Positions 1-54,537 of a DNA stretch of 55,905 bases are shown piece by piece. Positions within the stretch are counted from its first letter, which is position 1, and every line of letters begins with the position of its first letter. The notes below the pieces were generated by a model, which had not been told where the DNA came from, made no database searches, and was given only the letters and a program-made list of their open reading frames with translations. The translations under genes were made by a program, and so were the position numbers. The DNA is taken from IMG/VR virus record IMGVR_UViG_2698536580_000003, positions 1 to 55,905 of that record; one strand, given 5' to 3'. This DNA comes from a virus. Lineage: Duplodnaviria > Heunggongvirae > Uroviricota > Caudoviricetes.

Positions 1-279
1 GGTGAACGCACTATGGCGACGCTGGGGCGTCTTATGAGCCTGCTGTCACCCTTTGACGTGGTGATATGGATGACGGATGGCTGGCCGCTGTATGAATCCC
101 GCCTGAAGGGAAAGCTGCACGTAATCAGCAAGCGATATACGCAGCGAATTGAGCGGCATAACCTAAATCTGAGGCAGCACCTGGCACGGCTGGGACGGAA
201 GTCGCTGTCGTTCTCAAAATCGGTGGAGCTGCATGACAAAGTCATCGGGCATTATCTGAACATAAAACACTATCAATAA
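1..279 (+). CDS. insB: IS1 transposase InsB, C-terminal fragment (5' end outside window)
   Basis: Translation ...[50 protein letters not shown]... matches IS1 InsB C-terminus from memory. Confidence 0.9.
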
Positions 280-294
280 GTTGGAGTCATTACC
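1..294 (+). mobile_element. IS1 insertion sequence, right-hand portion (remainder outside window)
   Basis: InsB reading frame open from base 1; canonical IS1 terminal inverted repeat atcaataagttggagtcattacc ends at 294. Confidence 0.9.
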
Positions 295-2963: not shown

Positions 2964-3509
2964 TCATTGATGGTCTGATTTTTCCCACTCAGCCAGGGCG
3001 TTTAACCCGGCTTCACTCCATGATTCCGGTTCATCGGGATAATCACCTGCAACATAGCAGAGTTCGCAACGCAGCATACGAATTGCCAGCCTGGCATTAC
3101 CTCGCAAATTGTATTTTTCAAAGTAATGCTGCCCTTCATCATCCTCAAGGCAGATAGCACCATCATCAAGAAAGTGCACTTCCCAGCCTAATTCCCCGGC
3201 TGCATACAGCACACGCTGCTGTATGCCCTCGTCCGTTACTGGCGCAGGAATTTTACCGTCTCTGGCCTTAACTGCTTTCCAGAACTCGCCCCATGTCATT
3301 TCCAGCGTTCTTTCTGGCCACATTTCAGAAATGGTGTCTTTCCCCTGTGCTGGTGGGCTGTTCCGCTGCTCTGTCGCTTCCACATCAATTTTTTTACCGG
3401 ACATGACCACTTCGCCTTTCTCGAGCCAGTCGTAAACTGTCTGGCGGCTTACGCCTTTGTATTTGGCGTATTCGGCTTTACTCATCAACATGTAGCTCAC
3501 CTCATGCAT
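2964..3509 (-). CDS. HTH DNA-binding protein with acidic C-terminal domain (function unknown; possibly packaging or regulatory)
   Basis: N-terminal KAEYAKYKGVSRQTVYDWLEKGEV helix-turn-helix-like segment; start codon uncertain (several Met near N-terminus). Confidence 0.55.
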   Translation of the reverse strand: MHEVSYMLMSKAEYAKYKGVSRQTVYDWLEKGEVVMSGKKIDVEATEQRNSPPAQGKDTISEMWPERTLEMTWGEFWKAVKARDGKIPAPVTDEGIQQRVLYAAGELGWEVHFLDDGAICLEDDEGQHYFEKYNLRGNARLAIRMLRCELCYVAGDYPDEPESWSEAGLNALAEWEKSDHQ

Positions 3510-3590: not shown

Positions 3591-3863
3591 TCAGTTGCGC
3601 CAGGATGGCTGGCTAAGCGTGGTTTTCATTACATCATTGACGACCTGTTTTACGATTTCTGTGTTGGCAGTCGTGCTTTCAACATCAACAAAGCCATAAT
3701 CGCCAATTTCCACCGTCAGGGATTCCAGTTTCTTCCCTAGAGCATCAGGCAACTCTCCACTGAACCGATGCTGAAGATTTTCCACCAGCAACGCCCTGAA
3801 TGCCTCGCTGTTCTCTTTTTTCTGCCATAGCTGGCGTTTATCCACTCTGATATTTAATTTCAC
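3591..3863 (-). CDS. hypothetical protein (90 aa)
   Basis: ORF overlapping upstream small gene by 4 bp. Confidence 0.45.
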   Translation of the reverse strand: MKLNIRVDKRQLWQKKENSEAFRALLVENLQHRFSGELPDALGKKLESLTVEIGDYGFVDVESTTANTEIVKQVVNDVMKTTLSQPSWRN

Positions 3864-4027
3864 AGTCTCACCTCTTTAAGTGCCTTATCCATCAGTTGCC
3901 GAGCGATAACATGAATCGACGGTGCCACACCAAGCACAGATTTCTGACGCTCTTCGTCCTGGATGCGTTGCAGGGCTTCGATCTGCCTCCGGGAAAGTAA
4001 AACTGGCTTTACTCCGTGATTTTTCAT
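3860..4027 (-). CDS. hypothetical small protein (about 55 aa), start trimmed from ORF 3860..4189
   Basis: Internal Met MKNHGVKPVLLSRRQIEALQ... preceded by AGGGA RBS; upstream part of the long ORF is Cys-rich and not protein-like. Confidence 0.4.
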   Translation of the reverse strand: MKNHGVKPVLLSRRQIEALQRIQDEERQKSVLGVAPSIHVIARQLMDKALKEVRL

Positions 4028-4295
4028 GATGATCCCTTCTGAATGACAATAATTGCAATTATTGCACAAATTGAAATGATACCAGAGACAATTGCAATAA
4101 ATGAAACGAAAAGCATCAATAAACCAACCTTCGGCACTGAATGCTCTGATTTTTCTGCAAAGGTATGGCAGATGCAAACATAAAGGCAATAGCAGAAGAA
4201 GCAGCGGGGAGTGAAAAGGGGAAGTTTTTATAAATACACGATTGTCGCCTCACTGCAGGTTAACAGCCACAAGCTCCATGATAATAACTTGTTAA

Positions 4296-4683: not shown

Positions 4684-5826
4684 TTAAAGGGAACTTTTTT
4701 TCGCCCCTTCAATTTCTGCCTGACAAATTTCGTCATTTGTAAATGAGTACTGCAGATAGACATATCCCTGAGTGGAATTGTTCGCTCTGGCCTCAATAGA
4801 TATAGTATCAATATTGTTTTTTAATGGTATTTCTTTTGTTCCCTTCCATGTGGCAGATAAGAAGCGTTCTTTTTTGTTTAGCCCCCTCATCCAGTCCTGA
4901 GGATCTTTCCAAATTGAACCAGCCAGCAAAAAGTCTGTAGTATCAGCCTTTCCATACAGAGAACTTAAAGAATTACTCAATTCTTCAAACTTGGATTTAA
5001 GAGCCAATCCATAGCTATCAGTATCAATATTTTTTCCTAAAGCCCGTATTTGACATAAACCAGCTTTCGGGGAGATCAGCAAACCATACATTTCAAAATC
5101 TGCGTTTTGCTTCGGTAATTTATCAGAAGTATACAGATTCACACTGTCTGGTAGTGGCTTGAGCTTAGCACCGATCATATCTTCGATGTTTTTCTGTGTA
5201 AGACCGGCTTCTAAGCCAAACGGACCATCCGCTGGCGGGAGTAAAGGAAGTTGCTCTTGGGAATTTTTGGCTGTTACTTCCGTTTCAGTACTGTTTTTTG
5301 CGTCATTAGCTTGTACTGATGCCAGCTTAACTTCAGCGAGGCCATACTTGGCTGTGAGGTACTTTTGCTGCAACATTGCCATGGTCTGCTCTTCAGTGGC
5401 AACAGTAGATAATTTTAGTACCTTTATCAGACCACCACTATACTGACGAGCATCAGCTTTGGCTTCGTTGATTTTTGCATCTAAGCTGTCAATTTCAGTT
5501 TTAATTGAAGCCGCAAGCTCAGGATCAGGTTTTACTCCAGATACAACAACATCAATTTTGGCACCTGATTCAATAGCATTAATACGCTGTTCCAAAAGCG
5601 CTTTATTAGTTCCTAATATTTCCAGTCTTGCTGTTGTCAGATTTTTTATCAACCCACCAGAAAACTGCTGGTCAACTTCCTTAGCTGCTGATATTTCACC
5701 TTCCGTTTGCGACAGTTCAGCTTTAAGAGCAGCTACTTCCTGTTTCTGTTCTGGAGTTAACTCTTCTGGCCCACATCCGGTTAACATTACTATACCGACT
5801 AATGTTGCAATTAAAGTTTTATTCAT
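4684..5826 (-). CDS. lipoprotein with coiled-coil region and internal QYSGGLIK / QFSGGLIK repeats
   Basis: Signal peptide with lipobox LTGC near N-terminus (MNKTLIATLVGIVMLTGC); 380 aa. Confidence 0.7.
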   Translation of the reverse strand: MNKTLIATLVGIVMLTGCGPEELTPEQKQEVAALKAELSQTEGEISAAKEVDQQFSGGLIKNLTTARLEILGTNKALLEQRINAIESGAKIDVVVSGVKPDPELAASIKTEIDSLDAKINEAKADARQYSGGLIKVLKLSTVATEEQTMAMLQQKYLTAKYGLAEVKLASVQANDAKNSTETEVTAKNSQEQLPLLPPADGPFGLEAGLTQKNIEDMIGAKLKPLPDSVNLYTSDKLPKQNADFEMYGLLISPKAGLCQIRALGKNIDTDSYGLALKSKFEELSNSLSSLYGKADTTDFLLAGSIWKDPQDWMRGLNKKERFLSATWKGTKEIPLKNNIDTISIEARANNSTQGYVYLQYSFTNDEICQAEIEGAKKSSL

Positions 5827-5960
5827 ATCCCTATTCCAAATGAAAATATTCAGATTAATCTTATCAGGAACCCAGATGCAATTGAATATTCATCTGCTCA
5901 GCAACGTAGTAGATTTCCTCAGAAAGCATCAACAAAAAACCAAGAGAATCCCATCCTCTG

Positions 5961-6248
5961 TTACTGACTACAATTGTTCTTTTTTTGGTATTTCCTGAAT
6001 GCCTCACCATTGGGCTGATGTAATCCCATCCCGGCATGTGCCCGGCTGATGGTTTCGCGCATCTCCCCGAAATTATCCTGCCTTGCTGGTGGGCGTGCTG
6101 CCTTGTGGATACATTCCGCGCGACGTTTTGCCGCCTGTTCCCGTGCCTTGTCATCATTCGCCAGCATGATGACCTCAGCCCACCGCGCCGCCGCTCTCCG
6201 GTACAGACCACGCGCTTCCAGTGCTTCCGCTTTGCTGTCGTGAATCAT
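5961..6248 (-). CDS. PerC-family transcriptional regulator (start set at internal Met to give ATGA overlap)
   Basis: Motif LEARGLYRRAAARWAEV resembles PerC/Pch signature as recalled. Confidence 0.55.
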   Translation of the reverse strand: MIHDSKAEALEARGLYRRAAARWAEVIMLANDDKAREQAAKRRAECIHKAARPPARQDNFGEMRETISRAHAGMGLHQPNGEAFRKYQKKNNCSQ

Positions 6249-6787
6249 GCGCCTATTGTCTCCTTTGCTGCCCGGCACTGGCGTTTGCGCTTCTCATTCA
6301 GCGCCACCAGCCGCGTTTCTGCGTCCTGTTGTTCCTGTGGTGTCACCTCGCCGCACGGCTGGCCTTTCAGGTCGTAGCGTACCCCACCAGCCATTAAGGC
6401 GCGGTAATAGCGCGGACACTGCGCATAAGATGCCAGCGTCGCACGCAATGCCCCTGGCCCGAATGCCAGCCCCCTGGCGGCGAGATCCTGCATCAGGTCG
6501 TCGAATATCCCCACCTTAAGCGGCTTCAGTGCTTCCCGGCTGAATAAGTCAGGCCACAACTCAGTGAGGCGGTTAACGCGCCTGCGGTTTTTGCGCTGGC
6601 GTTTGGTCATATGCCGCCACGGTGTCGCCCCTGTAGGCTTCTGCTGCGCTTTCTGGTTACCGGGCATCACTTTATGCGCCGATGTGGTTTTATCCTGCTC
6701 CTGTGCCGCCTGCGTCGTTTTCTGCGGCGTGCCGTAAATACCTTTTGGTTTTCTGTTAATGGTCAGCTTAGTCATGCTTTGCCCCAT
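6245..6787 (-). CDS. ProQ/FinO-domain RNA-binding protein
   Basis: Segment LWPDLFS...PLKVGIFDDLMQDL...LRATLASYAQCPRYYRALMAGGVRYDLKGQPCGEVTPQEQQDAETRL parallels ProQ N-terminal FinO domain (PLKIGIFQDL...LRSALRLYTSSWRYL...RVDLDGNPCGEL) as recalled. Confidence 0.7.
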   Translation of the reverse strand: MGQSMTKLTINRKPKGIYGTPQKTTQAAQEQDKTTSAHKVMPGNQKAQQKPTGATPWRHMTKRQRKNRRRVNRLTELWPDLFSREALKPLKVGIFDDLMQDLAARGLAFGPGALRATLASYAQCPRYYRALMAGGVRYDLKGQPCGEVTPQEQQDAETRLVALNEKRKRQCRAAKETIGA

Positions 6788-6795
6788 CGTTACAA

Positions 6796-7132
6796 CTGTC
6801 TACCAACTGTCTACCGATATAATTGATTGATTTATTTAATGTTATTAACACATAACAAAAAAACAATCTGCAAACTGTCTACCAACGGTCTACCGCATTA
6901 ATACATTGATAATTAATGATTTTTACTAAATGGTAGACAGTGTAGACAGTTAAAAGAGAAATTTAAAAAATGCCCCCTTAACTATCTGTTTTTTATATAC
7001 CCCCCGTGGTTTAGGAATATAGAAATAACTGTCTACCTCTCTACTACATTGAAAATATCTTTATAATTCAAAATATTAATTGGTAGATGGTTGGTAGAGG
7101 GTTAAGTGAATCTGTCTACCAACCGTCTACCT
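6796..7132. repeat. iteron cluster, putative satellite replication origin (ori/crr-like)
   Basis: At least 10 copies of CTGTCTACC / GGTAGACAG (direct and inverted) at 6796, 6808, 6875, 6886, 6932, 6941, 7029, 7082, 7093, 7112, 7124, interspersed with AT-rich tracts, immediately downstream of the primase gene. Confidence 0.65.
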
Positions 7133-7158
7133 TTACGTTTCAGCTTATAAATTTCGTA

Positions 7159-8964
7159 TTATGTTCTGTCGTTAATCCCTGTAGCTGCTGGCAACCAGCC
7201 ATCAGCATCATCATCTAACAGAACATTTGTTATCACTCGCCCTTTATCCGGGCCTTTAGTGCATTTAGCCCGCTTATACTCCTTTCCGTATTCCGCCATA
7301 GCTCCTGGCATATCAGTACCAAAGCGTGTCAGTGATACTGGTTTTCCCAGGCCATGCGCTGACATATAGGCTAAATAAGCATGATACAGGTATCGCCTCG
7401 GGCTAAATGGCACTATTTCCGCATTGCCCACCATCATTCCTTCACATTTAACCAACGACATCAGATAGCCGCAAAAGTCCACCAGTGAATCACCTTCGCG
7501 CTTTATCAACAGCGCTTCTTCTGATTTTTGCTGCTCATAAAGTAGTCTTTTAGCTTCGTCCTGGTCGGTAAATCGTGTTAGCAAATGGCGAATCACTACC
7601 GCCAGTTCGCCTTCTATCTTTTCCGCCAGCATGGGATCGCGTTCGTTCTCCGGTACGACCTCAGAGAAATTAAATATCACCCTACGACGCGAGATCCCCC
7701 CGCTTCGGTCACTGAATGACATGGCGTTATTGTTTACCGCAAGCACTACTGCCGGAATACGTGTGGAGTAGGGGGCTTTATGTTTCGGATCAATTGCCAC
7801 CTTGTCGCCGCCAGTAATTGCCTTAATTCCTGCACCATCGCCAGCGTAGCGAGTCATATCCGGCATGATAATCAGCGAAAAGCCAACTACTAACGCGCGT
7901 TCCCTTGCGTCTTCCAGAGCCTTCATGCTTGCCGATACTGTGTTGGCCTTACCCGCCAGCATGGTACAAATCTCAGCCATCACACTTTTACCGCTTCCGC
8001 CTGGGCCTGTTACCTCAAGGAATAACTGCCAGTCGTACCGGTTCGCCAGCACCATGAATAATGCCGCCAGTACGCGATCAGCTTTACGATCATTATCTGC
8101 CACCGAACGACGCAGCCACTTCCAGAAATTCGGCGCATGTGTTGCCAGCGTTTCCCCCTCTGCTGGTGGGCTGAACGGTAATTCACTGGCATTTAACAAC
8201 CAGTCATTTTTGTTATGCTCCCGAAAATTTCCCGTCCGGGTATCAAATACCCCGTTACTGAATCCAATAAGATTCCTGTCTGCCCCGCCCATAACAGGCA
8301 GGCTCAATTTCATTGTGTCTACGGCAAATTTAATGGCGTTTTGCGAATAACTGATTCCAGCATCAATAAAAATCTTCGCCATAGACCGCTGGAGTTCCTT
8401 ATCAGATACAGGCACCCAGACAATTCCGTTGTAATGGTGAACTACATCAGAATCATCATTTATAGCCAGTGCTCTTCCATAATATTCAAGTAACACTTCC
8501 CCTCTCTGGCTGGCTCCCATCTGATTTAGTGCTGGCCTAGATAGGTCAATATTTTTTGTGGCTAATTTCATCGCTGAAACTTCCCCACTCTCTGCCTGTT
8601 CGCGGATCCGTTGCAGGTAGTCGCGCCAGTTTTCCGGCTCCCGGTCGGTGATACCTTTGTATAATTTCGCGTCCTGTACACCAGCCAGCGCCAGCTTTTC
8701 AGCAATAGCATTGATCTGGATTGGCTCTATCTCCCCCGCGAGATAGACACGCGCAAAGCGGCGTTCATCGTCGACAATGCGGATATTCGCCAGGTCTGCC
8801 AGTTGCTTTGGCCCCAGGTAAACAGGAGGCACGTTATCGCCGTGTTTTCGTCCTTCGCTTTCAATCCAGTGTTGAGCATGGGCGTAAGCATCCGTCCCAG
8901 CAAAAATGATTACCTCGGTGAATTTATCCTTCGGCTGATATTTTAAATTCGGTGCGTTTTTCAC
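7159..8964 (-). CDS. P4 alpha-like primase/helicase (D5-type NTPase)
   Basis: 601 aa; Walker A TGPGGSGKSV; overall resemblance to satellite-phage primases. Confidence 0.8.
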   Translation of the reverse strand: MKNAPNLKYQPKDKFTEVIIFAGTDAYAHAQHWIESEGRKHGDNVPPVYLGPKQLADLANIRIVDDERRFARVYLAGEIEPIQINAIAEKLALAGVQDAKLYKGITDREPENWRDYLQRIREQAESGEVSAMKLATKNIDLSRPALNQMGASQRGEVLLEYYGRALAINDDSDVVHHYNGIVWVPVSDKELQRSMAKIFIDAGISYSQNAIKFAVDTMKLSLPVMGGADRNLIGFSNGVFDTRTGNFREHNKNDWLLNASELPFSPPAEGETLATHAPNFWKWLRRSVADNDRKADRVLAALFMVLANRYDWQLFLEVTGPGGSGKSVMAEICTMLAGKANTVSASMKALEDARERALVVGFSLIIMPDMTRYAGDGAGIKAITGGDKVAIDPKHKAPYSTRIPAVVLAVNNNAMSFSDRSGGISRRRVIFNFSEVVPENERDPMLAEKIEGELAVVIRHLLTRFTDQDEAKRLLYEQQKSEEALLIKREGDSLVDFCGYLMSLVKCEGMMVGNAEIVPFSPRRYLYHAYLAYMSAHGLGKPVSLTRFGTDMPGAMAEYGKEYKRAKCTKGPDKGRVITNVLLDDDADGWLPAATGINDRT

Positions 8965-54459: not shown

Positions 54460-54507
54460 AATGGTGCCGATAATAGGAGTCGAACCTACGACCTTCGCAT
54501 TACGAAT
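54460..54507. repeat. att direct repeat (within tRNA-Thr 3' half), partner of 15356-15403
   Basis: 48-bp identity to 15356-15403. Confidence 0.85.
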
Positions 54508-54537
54508 GCGCTGCTCTACCAACTGAGCTATATCGGC
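54462..54537 (-). tRNA. thrW: tRNA-Thr (anticodon CGU)
   Basis: Reverse complement reads GCCGATATAGCTCAGTTGGTAGAGCAGCGCATTCGTAATGCGAAGGTCGTAGGTTCGACTCCTATTATCGGCACCA, a 76-nt cloverleaf with CGT anticodon. Confidence 0.9.

Follow-up and report, generated by a model that had tools for sequence, protein, structure and literature searches.

A paired TCTACC iteron cluster directly 3' of a Pri-Rep gene as the probable replication origin of a PICI-type satellite island at Escherichia coli thrW

What function a dense array of short repeats serves next to a satellite helicase gene, and to which kind of element it belongs, is the question raised by positions 6794-7131 of the viral record IMGVR_UViG_2698536580_000003, whose 55,905 nucleotides were analysed as a whole (hereafter the window). 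The repeats lie between two minus-strand genes, a 601-aa open reading frame (ORF) at 7159-8964 and a ProQ/FinO gene at 6245-6775. An initial annotation, made from the sequence alone, had proposed this segment as a candidate satellite replication origin with the architecture of P4-like elements. Mapping placed the window at thrW of the E. coli chromosome, and sequence comparisons led us to conclude that the cluster is very probably the vegetative replication origin of a phage-satellite island of the phage-inducible chromosomal island (PICI) type integrated there.

The cluster holds 12 copies of the consensus yyrTCTACC in both orientations, arranged as six pairs that are mostly phased by 11 bp. 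This count refers to matches to the pentamer TCTAC, degenerate copies included. Exact copies of the nonamer CTGTCTACC number six (five on the plus and one on the minus strand), and nine were found within 6796-7131 when up to one mismatch was allowed. The earlier figure of at least 10 iterons thus holds with degenerate copies but not for the nonamer itself. Throughout the window CTGTCTACC with at most one mismatch occurs 17 times, compared to a mean of 6.35 in shuffled sequences, and none of 100 shuffles reached 17. Eight of the nine exact GTCTACC copies in the window are inside the cluster. For the hexamer TCTACC, 10 of 18 window copies fall within 346 bp, where 0.05 are expected (Poisson P ~2e-20), while the maximum in any other 346-bp stretch of the window is 2. 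The cluster initially placed at 6796-7132 is therefore real and strongly enriched.

Pair F (7110-7131, plus strand, ATCTGTCTACC and AACCGTCTACC, 11 bp apart) is located 28 bp past the helicase stop codon (7159-7161), so that the cluster starts directly 3' of the initiator gene. It is followed by pair E (7080-7103), whose minus strand reads AACCCTCTACC and AACCATCTACC 11 bp apart, by pair D (7027-7046, plus strand), in which AACTGTCTACC and a degenerate TCTCTACT are 8 bp apart, and by pair C (6932-6951, minus strand), which reads GGTAGACAG TGTAGACAG on the plus strand with a 9-bp phase. Pair B (6873-6894, AACTGTCTACC and AACGGTCTACC) and pair A (6794-6815, two copies of AACTGTCTACC, ~20 bp upstream of the ProQ/FinO start codon) both lie on the plus strand with an 11-bp phase, and each follows the direct pattern AACTGTCTACC-AACnGTCTACC. 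The two orientations predicted for the repeats were thus found, pairs C and E being inverted, as were AT-rich spacers, the GC content across 6750-7150 being 0.24-0.34 versus 0.5-0.66 in the gene to the left.

Because of an internal duplication with a period of ~150 bp (6900-6937 and 7054-7087 are direct copies at 71-86%, separated by 150-154 bp), the cluster can be read as two modules, each consisting of two direct copies, a 35-37-bp AT-rich spacer and two inverted copies, with A and F as outer pairs. The 35-bp spacer D-E (7047-7081), AT-rich and bordered by inward-facing pairs, is a candidate DNA-unwinding element, and the equally bordered AT-rich 37-bp spacer B-C (6895-6931; -43 kcal/mol per 40-mer) is a second one. 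The 40-mer at 7041-7080 is the second least stable of the entire window (-40.1 kcal/mol versus a mean of -56.2, sd 5.1). Close behind follow 6895-6930 and 6820-6859, the latter with -41.7 kcal/mol in the 57-bp AT-rich spacer A-B (6816-6872). The two iteron sets are separated by a central spacer of 77 bp (6950-7026).

Among seven E. coli variants of this intergenic region that are 90-100% identical, 5 of 60 TCTAC core columns were variable compared to 56 of 276 non-iteron columns (Fisher p = 0.027), and 18 of 47 iteron-flanking positions varied. Since TCTAC is kept and the flanking iteron positions are free, the functional core should be TCTAC(C) and not the full nonamer. The paired iteron CTGTCTACCAACnGTCTACC is present in 19 IMG/VR contigs (L032-L050), 10 of which show the 79- and 237-bp spacing of pairs A, B and F; many of these contigs are 15-17.5 kb long, which is about the size of the island. 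When the phage collection was searched at the DNA level with the cluster as query, no match was obtained.

The gene preceding the cluster (7159-8964, minus strand) encodes a predicted replication initiator consisting of a superfamily 3 (SF3) helicase (D5_N plus DUF5906 P-loop) and a C-terminal origin-binding domain. Pfam matches were D5_N, DUF5906 and Pox_D5, and TIGR01613, which describes the C-terminal region of P4-family primases, scored 95.8 bits, under its cut-off of 108.7. The normal length of the family is 601 aa and the ORF is intact in the window; in strain K56-43, by contrast, an otherwise nearly identical copy carries a single inserted C within a C run and bears a frameshift annotation. 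The protein shares 49% identity with P4 alpha over residues 141-592 and 44% with the Pri-Rep of EcCICFT073 along the full length, N-terminal domain included; its identity to the initiators of EcCIRM13514 and EcCI224 is 74-78%. On these alignments it is the 'Pri-Rep' of Gram-negative PICIs, alpha-like from residue 141 on. Codons 491-592 (7189-7494, minus strand) specify the presumed iteron reader, which phmmer matched to the P4 alpha origin-binding domain (PDB 1ka8) with an E value of 6.4e-19. An AlphaFold2 model of this C-terminal domain was too poor to use (predicted local distance difference test score of 48).

Gene and iterons are linked beyond this island. The relatives compared comprised 13 loci from other species or elements together with P4, vB_KppS-Ant, EcCICFT073, EcCIRM13514, EcCI224 and a circular element of Morganella; EcCIIHE3034 was included in the protein comparison only. 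In those with downstream DNA examined, ~7-13 short repeats in both orientations were found within ~300 bp 3' of the homologous gene, with an Erwinia locus (L014) as the sole exception. This linkage is independent of the next gene, which is ProQ/FinO here, a gene for single-stranded DNA-binding protein (SSB) in EcCIRM13514, a hypothetical gene in EcCICFT073 and in the Morganella element, a capsid gene in vB_KppS-Ant, and attP/int in P4. The Morganella morganii plasmid p46903_1 (NZ_CP070523.1, L019; 24.7 kb, circular according to its record) resembles, by its capsid, portal, protease, Icd-like and AntA genes, a satellite that brings its own capsid gene. At its positions 3830-4085, iterons of the forms CTGTCTACC and GTGTCTAC lie directly 3' of an alpha-like gene, and 95 bp of this region match the window cluster at 76%.

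The closest experimentally tested relative is EcCICFT073, not P4. Its rep gene and putative origin in a temperature-sensitive plasmid gave colonies at 44°C, whereas the rep-mutant plasmid gave none and deletion of ori cut their number significantly (Fillol-Salom 2018, PMC6092414). In E. coli, rep and origin of that island thus suffice with no helper phage present. The deletion primer EcoCFT073-pri-4c in the supplement of that study contains AGGTAGACAGGGTAGACAG, and in the EcCICFT073 genome ~11 copies of GTCTACC, ATCTACC or GGTAGA (GGTAGAC) occupy the 230 bp right after pri-rep. Both islands carry int, an alpA-like helix-turn-helix (HTH) gene, Icd-like, DUF4222, a primase-family helicase, an iteron cluster and PerC, the annotated order in EcCICFT073 being int, HTH, YlcI, Icd-like, small ORFs, DUF4222, primase-family protein, intergenic cluster, SSB and PerC. 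In both, a single cluster with the core (G/A)TCTACC in both orientations is situated directly 3' of the gene, with iteron sets flanking AT-rich DNA. EcCICFT073 differs in its Pri-Rep allele and in the arrangement of copies. Its C-terminal domain is ~35% similar to that of the thrW island, as judged by eye, and does not have the five-residue wing insertion described below. Moreover, it is integrated at ycfD-phoQ instead of thrW, and SSB and capsid/decoration genes follow downstream in place of ProQ/FinO, PerC, a lipoprotein-like ORF and GapS1. Helper-phage induction and packaging are known for EcCICFT073 (PMC6092414).

Furthermore, the iteron core co-varies with one segment of the origin-binding domain. 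In five loci the TCTACC core (TGTCTACC; this island, E. ruysiae, Kluyvera georgiana, Enterobacter hormaechei and Morganella) goes with a CT(K/R)G(P/A)DKGR segment, in full KRxxCT(K/R)G(P/A)DKGR(V/T)I(T/S)N, which has five extra residues. In ten loci the TTCACC core (TGTTCACC, the annotated P4 type-1 repeat; P4, Klebsiella, Raoultella, Pluralibacter, Citrobacter, Kluyvera ascorbata, vB_KppS-Ant, EcCIRM13514 and EcCI224) goes with K(R/K)xTKxG, which has no insertion and is followed directly by (I/V/L)(R/Q)(S/T)N. Three Serratia loci with the core TCCRCC (TGTCCGCC or TGTCCACC) carry other insertions. In the window the segment is KEYKRAKCTKGPDKGRVITN (shorter form KRAKCTKGPDKGRVITN), and such a five-residue insertion, here 'GPDKG', was restricted to loci whose iterons are of the TCTACC or TCCRCC kind; the EcCIRM13514 counterpart of KRAKCTKGPDKGRVITN reads KKRTKEGVRSN. 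The 1ka8 structure is a winged helix, and the co-varying segment is presumably its beta-hairpin wing, a label based on winged-helix topology and the alignment to 1ka8, and not on a model. Correlates in a 'recognition helix' of the first alignment (AN/AH, SLM/SLT) were dropped, as EcCIRM13514 and EcCI224 break them. A full-text literature search for TGTTCACC returned unrelated primer matches only. Judged from these alignments, the window element is a specificity variant within the EcCIRM13514 / EcCI224 / vB_KppS-Ant clade.

Altogether, a satellite replication origin is the best-supported reading of the cluster, owing to its extreme enrichment, its position after a gene with a P4-type origin-binding domain, the linkage across relatives and the co-variation of core and protein, and also to the conservation of TCTAC, the unstable spacers, the replicon precedent of EcCICFT073 and the presence of a single cluster. 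As the complete thrW island (L001) contains only one TCTACC cluster, no separate origin is likely to be hidden elsewhere. Several points weigh against this reading. The replication experiments concern EcCICFT073 only, and not this island or its Pri-Rep allele, and in P4 the cluster at the corresponding position, crr, is an auxiliary cis element and not the start site. The conservation test is small (seven sequences, p = 0.027). The co-variation is phylogenetically confounded, and it is imperfect, EcCICFT073 with its much more divergent domain having a (G/A)TCTACC core without the insertion. The 601-aa protein has no recognisable primase domain, so that the mechanism is not simply that of P4 alpha. 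Finally, apart from a weakly terminase small subunit (TerS)-like ORF the island has no recognisable packaging genes; by published PICI scoring it would be a low-confidence type, like EcCIMP1, and it might be defective.

If the cluster is the origin, the 601-aa protein would, after induction and excision of the island, bind the TCTACC iterons through its C-terminal P4-alpha-type domain. The 11-bp phasing corresponds to one helical turn and may place the two binding sites of a pair on one face of the DNA. The B/C and D/E modules bracket the 35-37-bp AT-rich spacers and could position helicase subunits on either side of them, with A and F as further sites. An SF3 ring assembled on this iteron scaffold would then melt the spacer and load itself. 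Priming would probably be carried out by host DnaG, as primase motifs are lacking and the equally primase-less EcCICFT073 protein works in DH5alpha.

The lack of primase motifs concerns the N-terminal domain (codons 1-125; 8590-8964, minus strand), which has a Toprim-like fold. Its resemblance to Toprim is at the fold level only. The N-terminal 140 residues had no Pfam match, whereas P4 alpha has Zn_Ribbon_Prim and Toprim, and neither BLASTP nor hhalign detected similarity between the N-terminal domain and P4 alpha. The position of the Toprim glutamate, which closes strand 1, is taken by an alanine (FAG, Ala22) that the family conserves, and at the DxD position after strand 3 the residues are variable in the family; both positions were placed from the strands of a model and alignment A3, not by structural superposition. 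On sequence evidence, 'primase' thus appears to be a courtesy name for this protein. The proposal that the cluster directly follows an alpha-like primase gene was borne out with respect to position and to the helicase and origin-binding parts, but not with respect to a Zn-ribbon/Toprim primase. The same N-terminal domain is also fused to DUF927-type helicases. Conversely, the 793-aa protein of the Morganella circular element shares 86% identity with the window protein over residues 144-595, yet its N-terminus is a complete Zn-ribbon/Toprim region. This implies that the helicase and origin-binding cassette pairs with different N-termini.

The relation to P4 bears directly on the alternative that the cluster has an auxiliary role in cis like that of crr, enhancing replication or serving as a looping partner, with initiation taking place elsewhere as in P4. 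P4 shares with the island homologous helicase and origin-binding domains (the 49% identity and 1ka8 match given above) and short TGT-nnn-CC iterons in both orientations, clustered directly 3' of the gene. GenBank record X51522 of P4 annotates the cluster directly after alpha as crr, with two 120-bp direct repeats. In each such unit, a 35-bp spacer separates two direct type-1 repeats from two inverted ones, which are followed by one more direct repeat. This unit is very close to the D-E-F module, and the inward-facing spacer is 35 bp in both. Position and architecture, including the spacer length of 35-37 bp and the 150-bp duplication, therefore match crr. However, P4 requires two TTCACC clusters, ori and crr, which lie 4.5 kb from each other, whereas the thrW island and EcCICFT073 have one TCTACC cluster each, and in EcCICFT073 the single cluster together with rep sufficed for plasmid replication (PMC6092414). 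We thus consider a purely auxiliary role improbable. The ori/crr architecture initially proposed is matched in domain and repeat layout, but there is one cluster here and the post-alpha cluster of P4 is crr. P4 further differs from the island in its core (TGTTCACC versus (C)TGTCTACC) and in the Zn-ribbon and Toprim primase of alpha, which the island protein does not have. The different core had been pointed out correctly, but it is not unique, being common to EcCICFT073 and the Morganella circular element.

By sequence comparison, the island cluster would work like the iteron sites of P4 and share their descent, while the element itself does not appear to be a P4-like satellite. Neither genes for P4-type capsid or transcription functions nor the P4 core genes sid, delta, psu and epsilon turned up in Pfam and PHROG scans of the larger ORFs and some of the small ones. 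The gene order is that of PICIs such as EcCICFT073, EcCIRM13514 and EcCIMP1, and the classification as P4-like was therefore abandoned. An iteron plasmid origin of the RepA/pi type, with tandem 17-22-bp direct iterons and DnaA boxes, was likewise rejected because the iterons of the cluster measure 9-11 bp and occur in both orientations, the initiator is an SF3 helicase, and no DnaA box with up to one mismatch was found in 6113-7502.

According to another explanation, which seems to us quite unlikely, the repeats are mainly transcription operators that govern termination or attenuation of pri-rep, or expression of the ProQ/FinO-PerC genes, through the helicase or another island regulator such as AlpA or PerC. 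With pair A only ~20 bp upstream of its start codon, the ProQ/FinO gene must have a promoter that overlaps the cluster, and pairs E and F form a 17-bp inverted repeat (94% complementary, 16-nt loop, 7082-7131) just past the helicase stop codon; in P4 a terminator is annotated between alpha and crr. The cluster nevertheless travels with the helicase gene whatever comes next, and its core co-varies with the DNA-binding domain of the helicase. Sigma-70 promoter-like and terminator-like sites were no more frequent than in shuffled sequences, and no promoter could therefore be assigned to the ProQ/FinO gene. A secondary regulatory role would be compatible with origin function, and the cluster possibly serves as an operator for the ProQ/FinO-PerC genes in addition. 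The E/F hairpin, located 28 bp past the stop codon and followed by A/T-rich sequence, could double as terminator of the replication operon. A folded RNA was rejected as an explanation of the cluster: the single-strand folding score (z = -6.2) only reflects the inverted iterons and does not speak for an RNA. An Rfam scan of 5800-7600 gave two matches far under the gathering scores, which we took as chance.

That the cluster is the relic origin of a decayed, non-replicating island, kept because the island is young or by hitch-hiking, is very improbable. In its favour, IS1 has inserted into gapS1 in this strain, related copies have a frameshifted helicase, IS3 at the position of the primase gene of the other variants or a truncated ProQ gene, and scans of the larger ORFs showed no clear packaging module. 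Against it, the window has intact integrase, AlpA-like and helicase genes, the last at full family length, the TCTAC cores are better conserved than the surrounding intergenic DNA, and EcCIMP1, with an integrase of equal length at the same site and a similarly poor packaging module, is inducible and transferable (PMC11773190).

The island served by this putative origin spans 16.9 kb in strain K56-43, between 38-bp direct repeats TTTTTAAATACTTGAGTAGACTTGGGGAGACGTTAGAA beside tRNA-Thr, somewhat above the 7.5-14.7 kb of the PICIs in Table S1 of Fillol-Salom 2018 (PMC6092414). From the int side, its genes are int, a 243-aa ORF, AlpA-like HTH, AntA, Icd-like, small ORFs, DUF4222, the helicase and the iterons, followed by ProQ/FinO, PerC, a lipoprotein-like ORF, small ORFs, the weakly TerS-like ORF and GapS1. 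In the window, int, AlpA-like HTH, AntA, Icd-like, DUF4222 and helicase genes are all on the minus strand, which is the unidirectional organisation of PICIs. The 38-bp attachment (att) repeat at the thrW end occupies 15320-15357 and is followed by a partial tRNA-Thr copy up to 15403. The tyrosine integrase (13977-15191, minus strand; WP_000772650 in H1) has the Pfam domains Arm-DNA-bind_3, Phage_int_M and Phage_integrase. The small AlpA-like HTH regulator (12708-12905, minus strand) stands at the position of alpA in Gram-negative PICIs; it was assigned by synteny with EcCICFT073, EcCIMP1 and EcCIRM13514, the only family match being a weak NCBIfam hit to an unrelated HTH family. The ProQ/FinO-family gene (6245-6775, minus strand; Pfam ProQ, E 2.5e-23; start placed at 6775 by the NCBI Prokaryotic Genome Annotation Pipeline, PGAP) is accessory, lies outside the replicon and is the first gene past the origin. 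A 181-aa ORF (2964-3509, minus strand) with an N-terminal HTH matches the terminase small subunit family phrog_57 (E 2e-6); nothing else that the Pfam and PHROG scans returned for the island pointed to packaging. In a 512-aa ORF (10250-11788, minus strand) the sole recognisable part is a C-terminal 48-residue Icd-like domain, and the ORF is either a real fusion or a chance long ORF; for the same region of K56-43, PGAP annotates a partial Icd-like pseudogene with an opposite-strand YlcI/YnfO gene inside. At the distal island end, which is the left end of the window (1-294 and 295-855), an IS1 copy lies inside the anti-phage defence gene gapS1 (GAPS1), which is intact in K56-43 (1.6 kb).

A prophage of ~39 kb (15404-54456) occupies the thrW site together with the island, in tandem arrangement, and is flanked by the partial tRNA-Thr and by the complete one, which lies at its far end (54462-54537, minus strand). 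The site is thus shared with a temperate gtr prophage, although PICI att sites are described as never used by such prophages. Among the genes of this prophage are those for O-antigen modification (gtrA/gtrB/gtrII type), for an HK97-type head and a contractile tail, for packaging (HNH and P27-family TerS), and for PerC-family and DUF4222 proteins. Possibly it acts as helper phage of the island.

Comparison with further PICIs and with the capsid-gene-carrying element vB_KppS-Ant refines the placement of the island. EcCIRM13514, EcCI224 and vB_KppS-Ant have initiators of equal length that are 73-78% identical and the same cluster position, and EcCIRM13514 also has ProQ/FinO and PerC genes downstream, but all three differ from the island by TGTTCACC iterons and a wing segment without the five-residue insertion. 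Among the PICIs of Table S1, which does not include E. coli thrW (Fillol-Salom 2018, PMC6092414), EcCIIHE3034 was rejected as source of the window allele since it has the CFT073 allele, and EcCI042 since its helicase belongs to the unrelated RepA family; EcCIRM13514 and EcCI224 are nearest, yet have TTCACC iterons. EcCIMP1 is a PICI at thrW of E. coli MP1 that is induced and transferred by a helper phage (PMC11773190). Like the island it adjoins the same MarR/vat island, has AlpA-like, AntA, DUF4222 and Icd-like genes and carries iterons directly 3' of its replication gene, and its integrase WP_000772643 has the same length and site. Unlike the island it encodes a 918-aa TOPRIM + DUF927 replication protein of an unrelated family and has GTTGGTTCA iterons and another downstream module. 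Its iteron set (NZ_CP139039.1, L027, 18392-18513), directly 3' of the TOPRIM/DUF927 gene, consists of three direct TGTTGGTTCA with 21-bp spacing and three inverted TGAACCAAC with 9-bp spacing; this origin is not mentioned in the passages of PMC11773190 consulted. Since its integration side resembles EcCIMP1 and its initiator is 74-78% identical to those of EcCIRM13514 and EcCI224, the island appears to be a mosaic of the thrW integration and regulation module of EcCIMP1 and an EcCIRM13514/EcCI224-clade replication module switched to TCTACC. The origins of Staphylococcus aureus pathogenicity islands, which are Gram-positive PICIs, are likewise located immediately 3' of rep, with iteron sets around an AT-rich region, as published (PMC6092414), but their Rep family and iteron sequences are unrelated; this comparison was made through the literature only.

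The cluster marks the replicon of the thrW island beside the vat toxin island in extraintestinal E. coli and places this island among the phage-inducible satellites. By itself it adds little beyond that, as the origin type and the iteron core have already been documented for EcCICFT073. A by-product is that the so-called primase of these islands lacks primase motifs, an apparent loss of primase in the PICI 'Pri-Rep'. More tentatively, and with somewhat less than even expectation that it will hold, we propose that within the initiator clade (>72% identical) specificity has been reset at least twice by remodelling one origin-binding segment, here through 'GPDKG', and that, independently, the helicase/origin-binding cassette with its origin has been joined either to a full primase, as in the Morganella element and P4, or to an inactivated Toprim-like domain, as in this island and EcCICFT073. 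If this is true, PICI 'Pri-Rep' proteins would not be primases and would depend on host priming, and TCTACC, TTCACC and TCCRCC would define orthogonal replicons, sparing co-resident satellites competition for each other's initiators. A second by-product is a natural series of close relatives among the initiators, which use three different iteron cores and have one segment that co-varies with them, and which lend themselves to testing how origin specificity is encoded.

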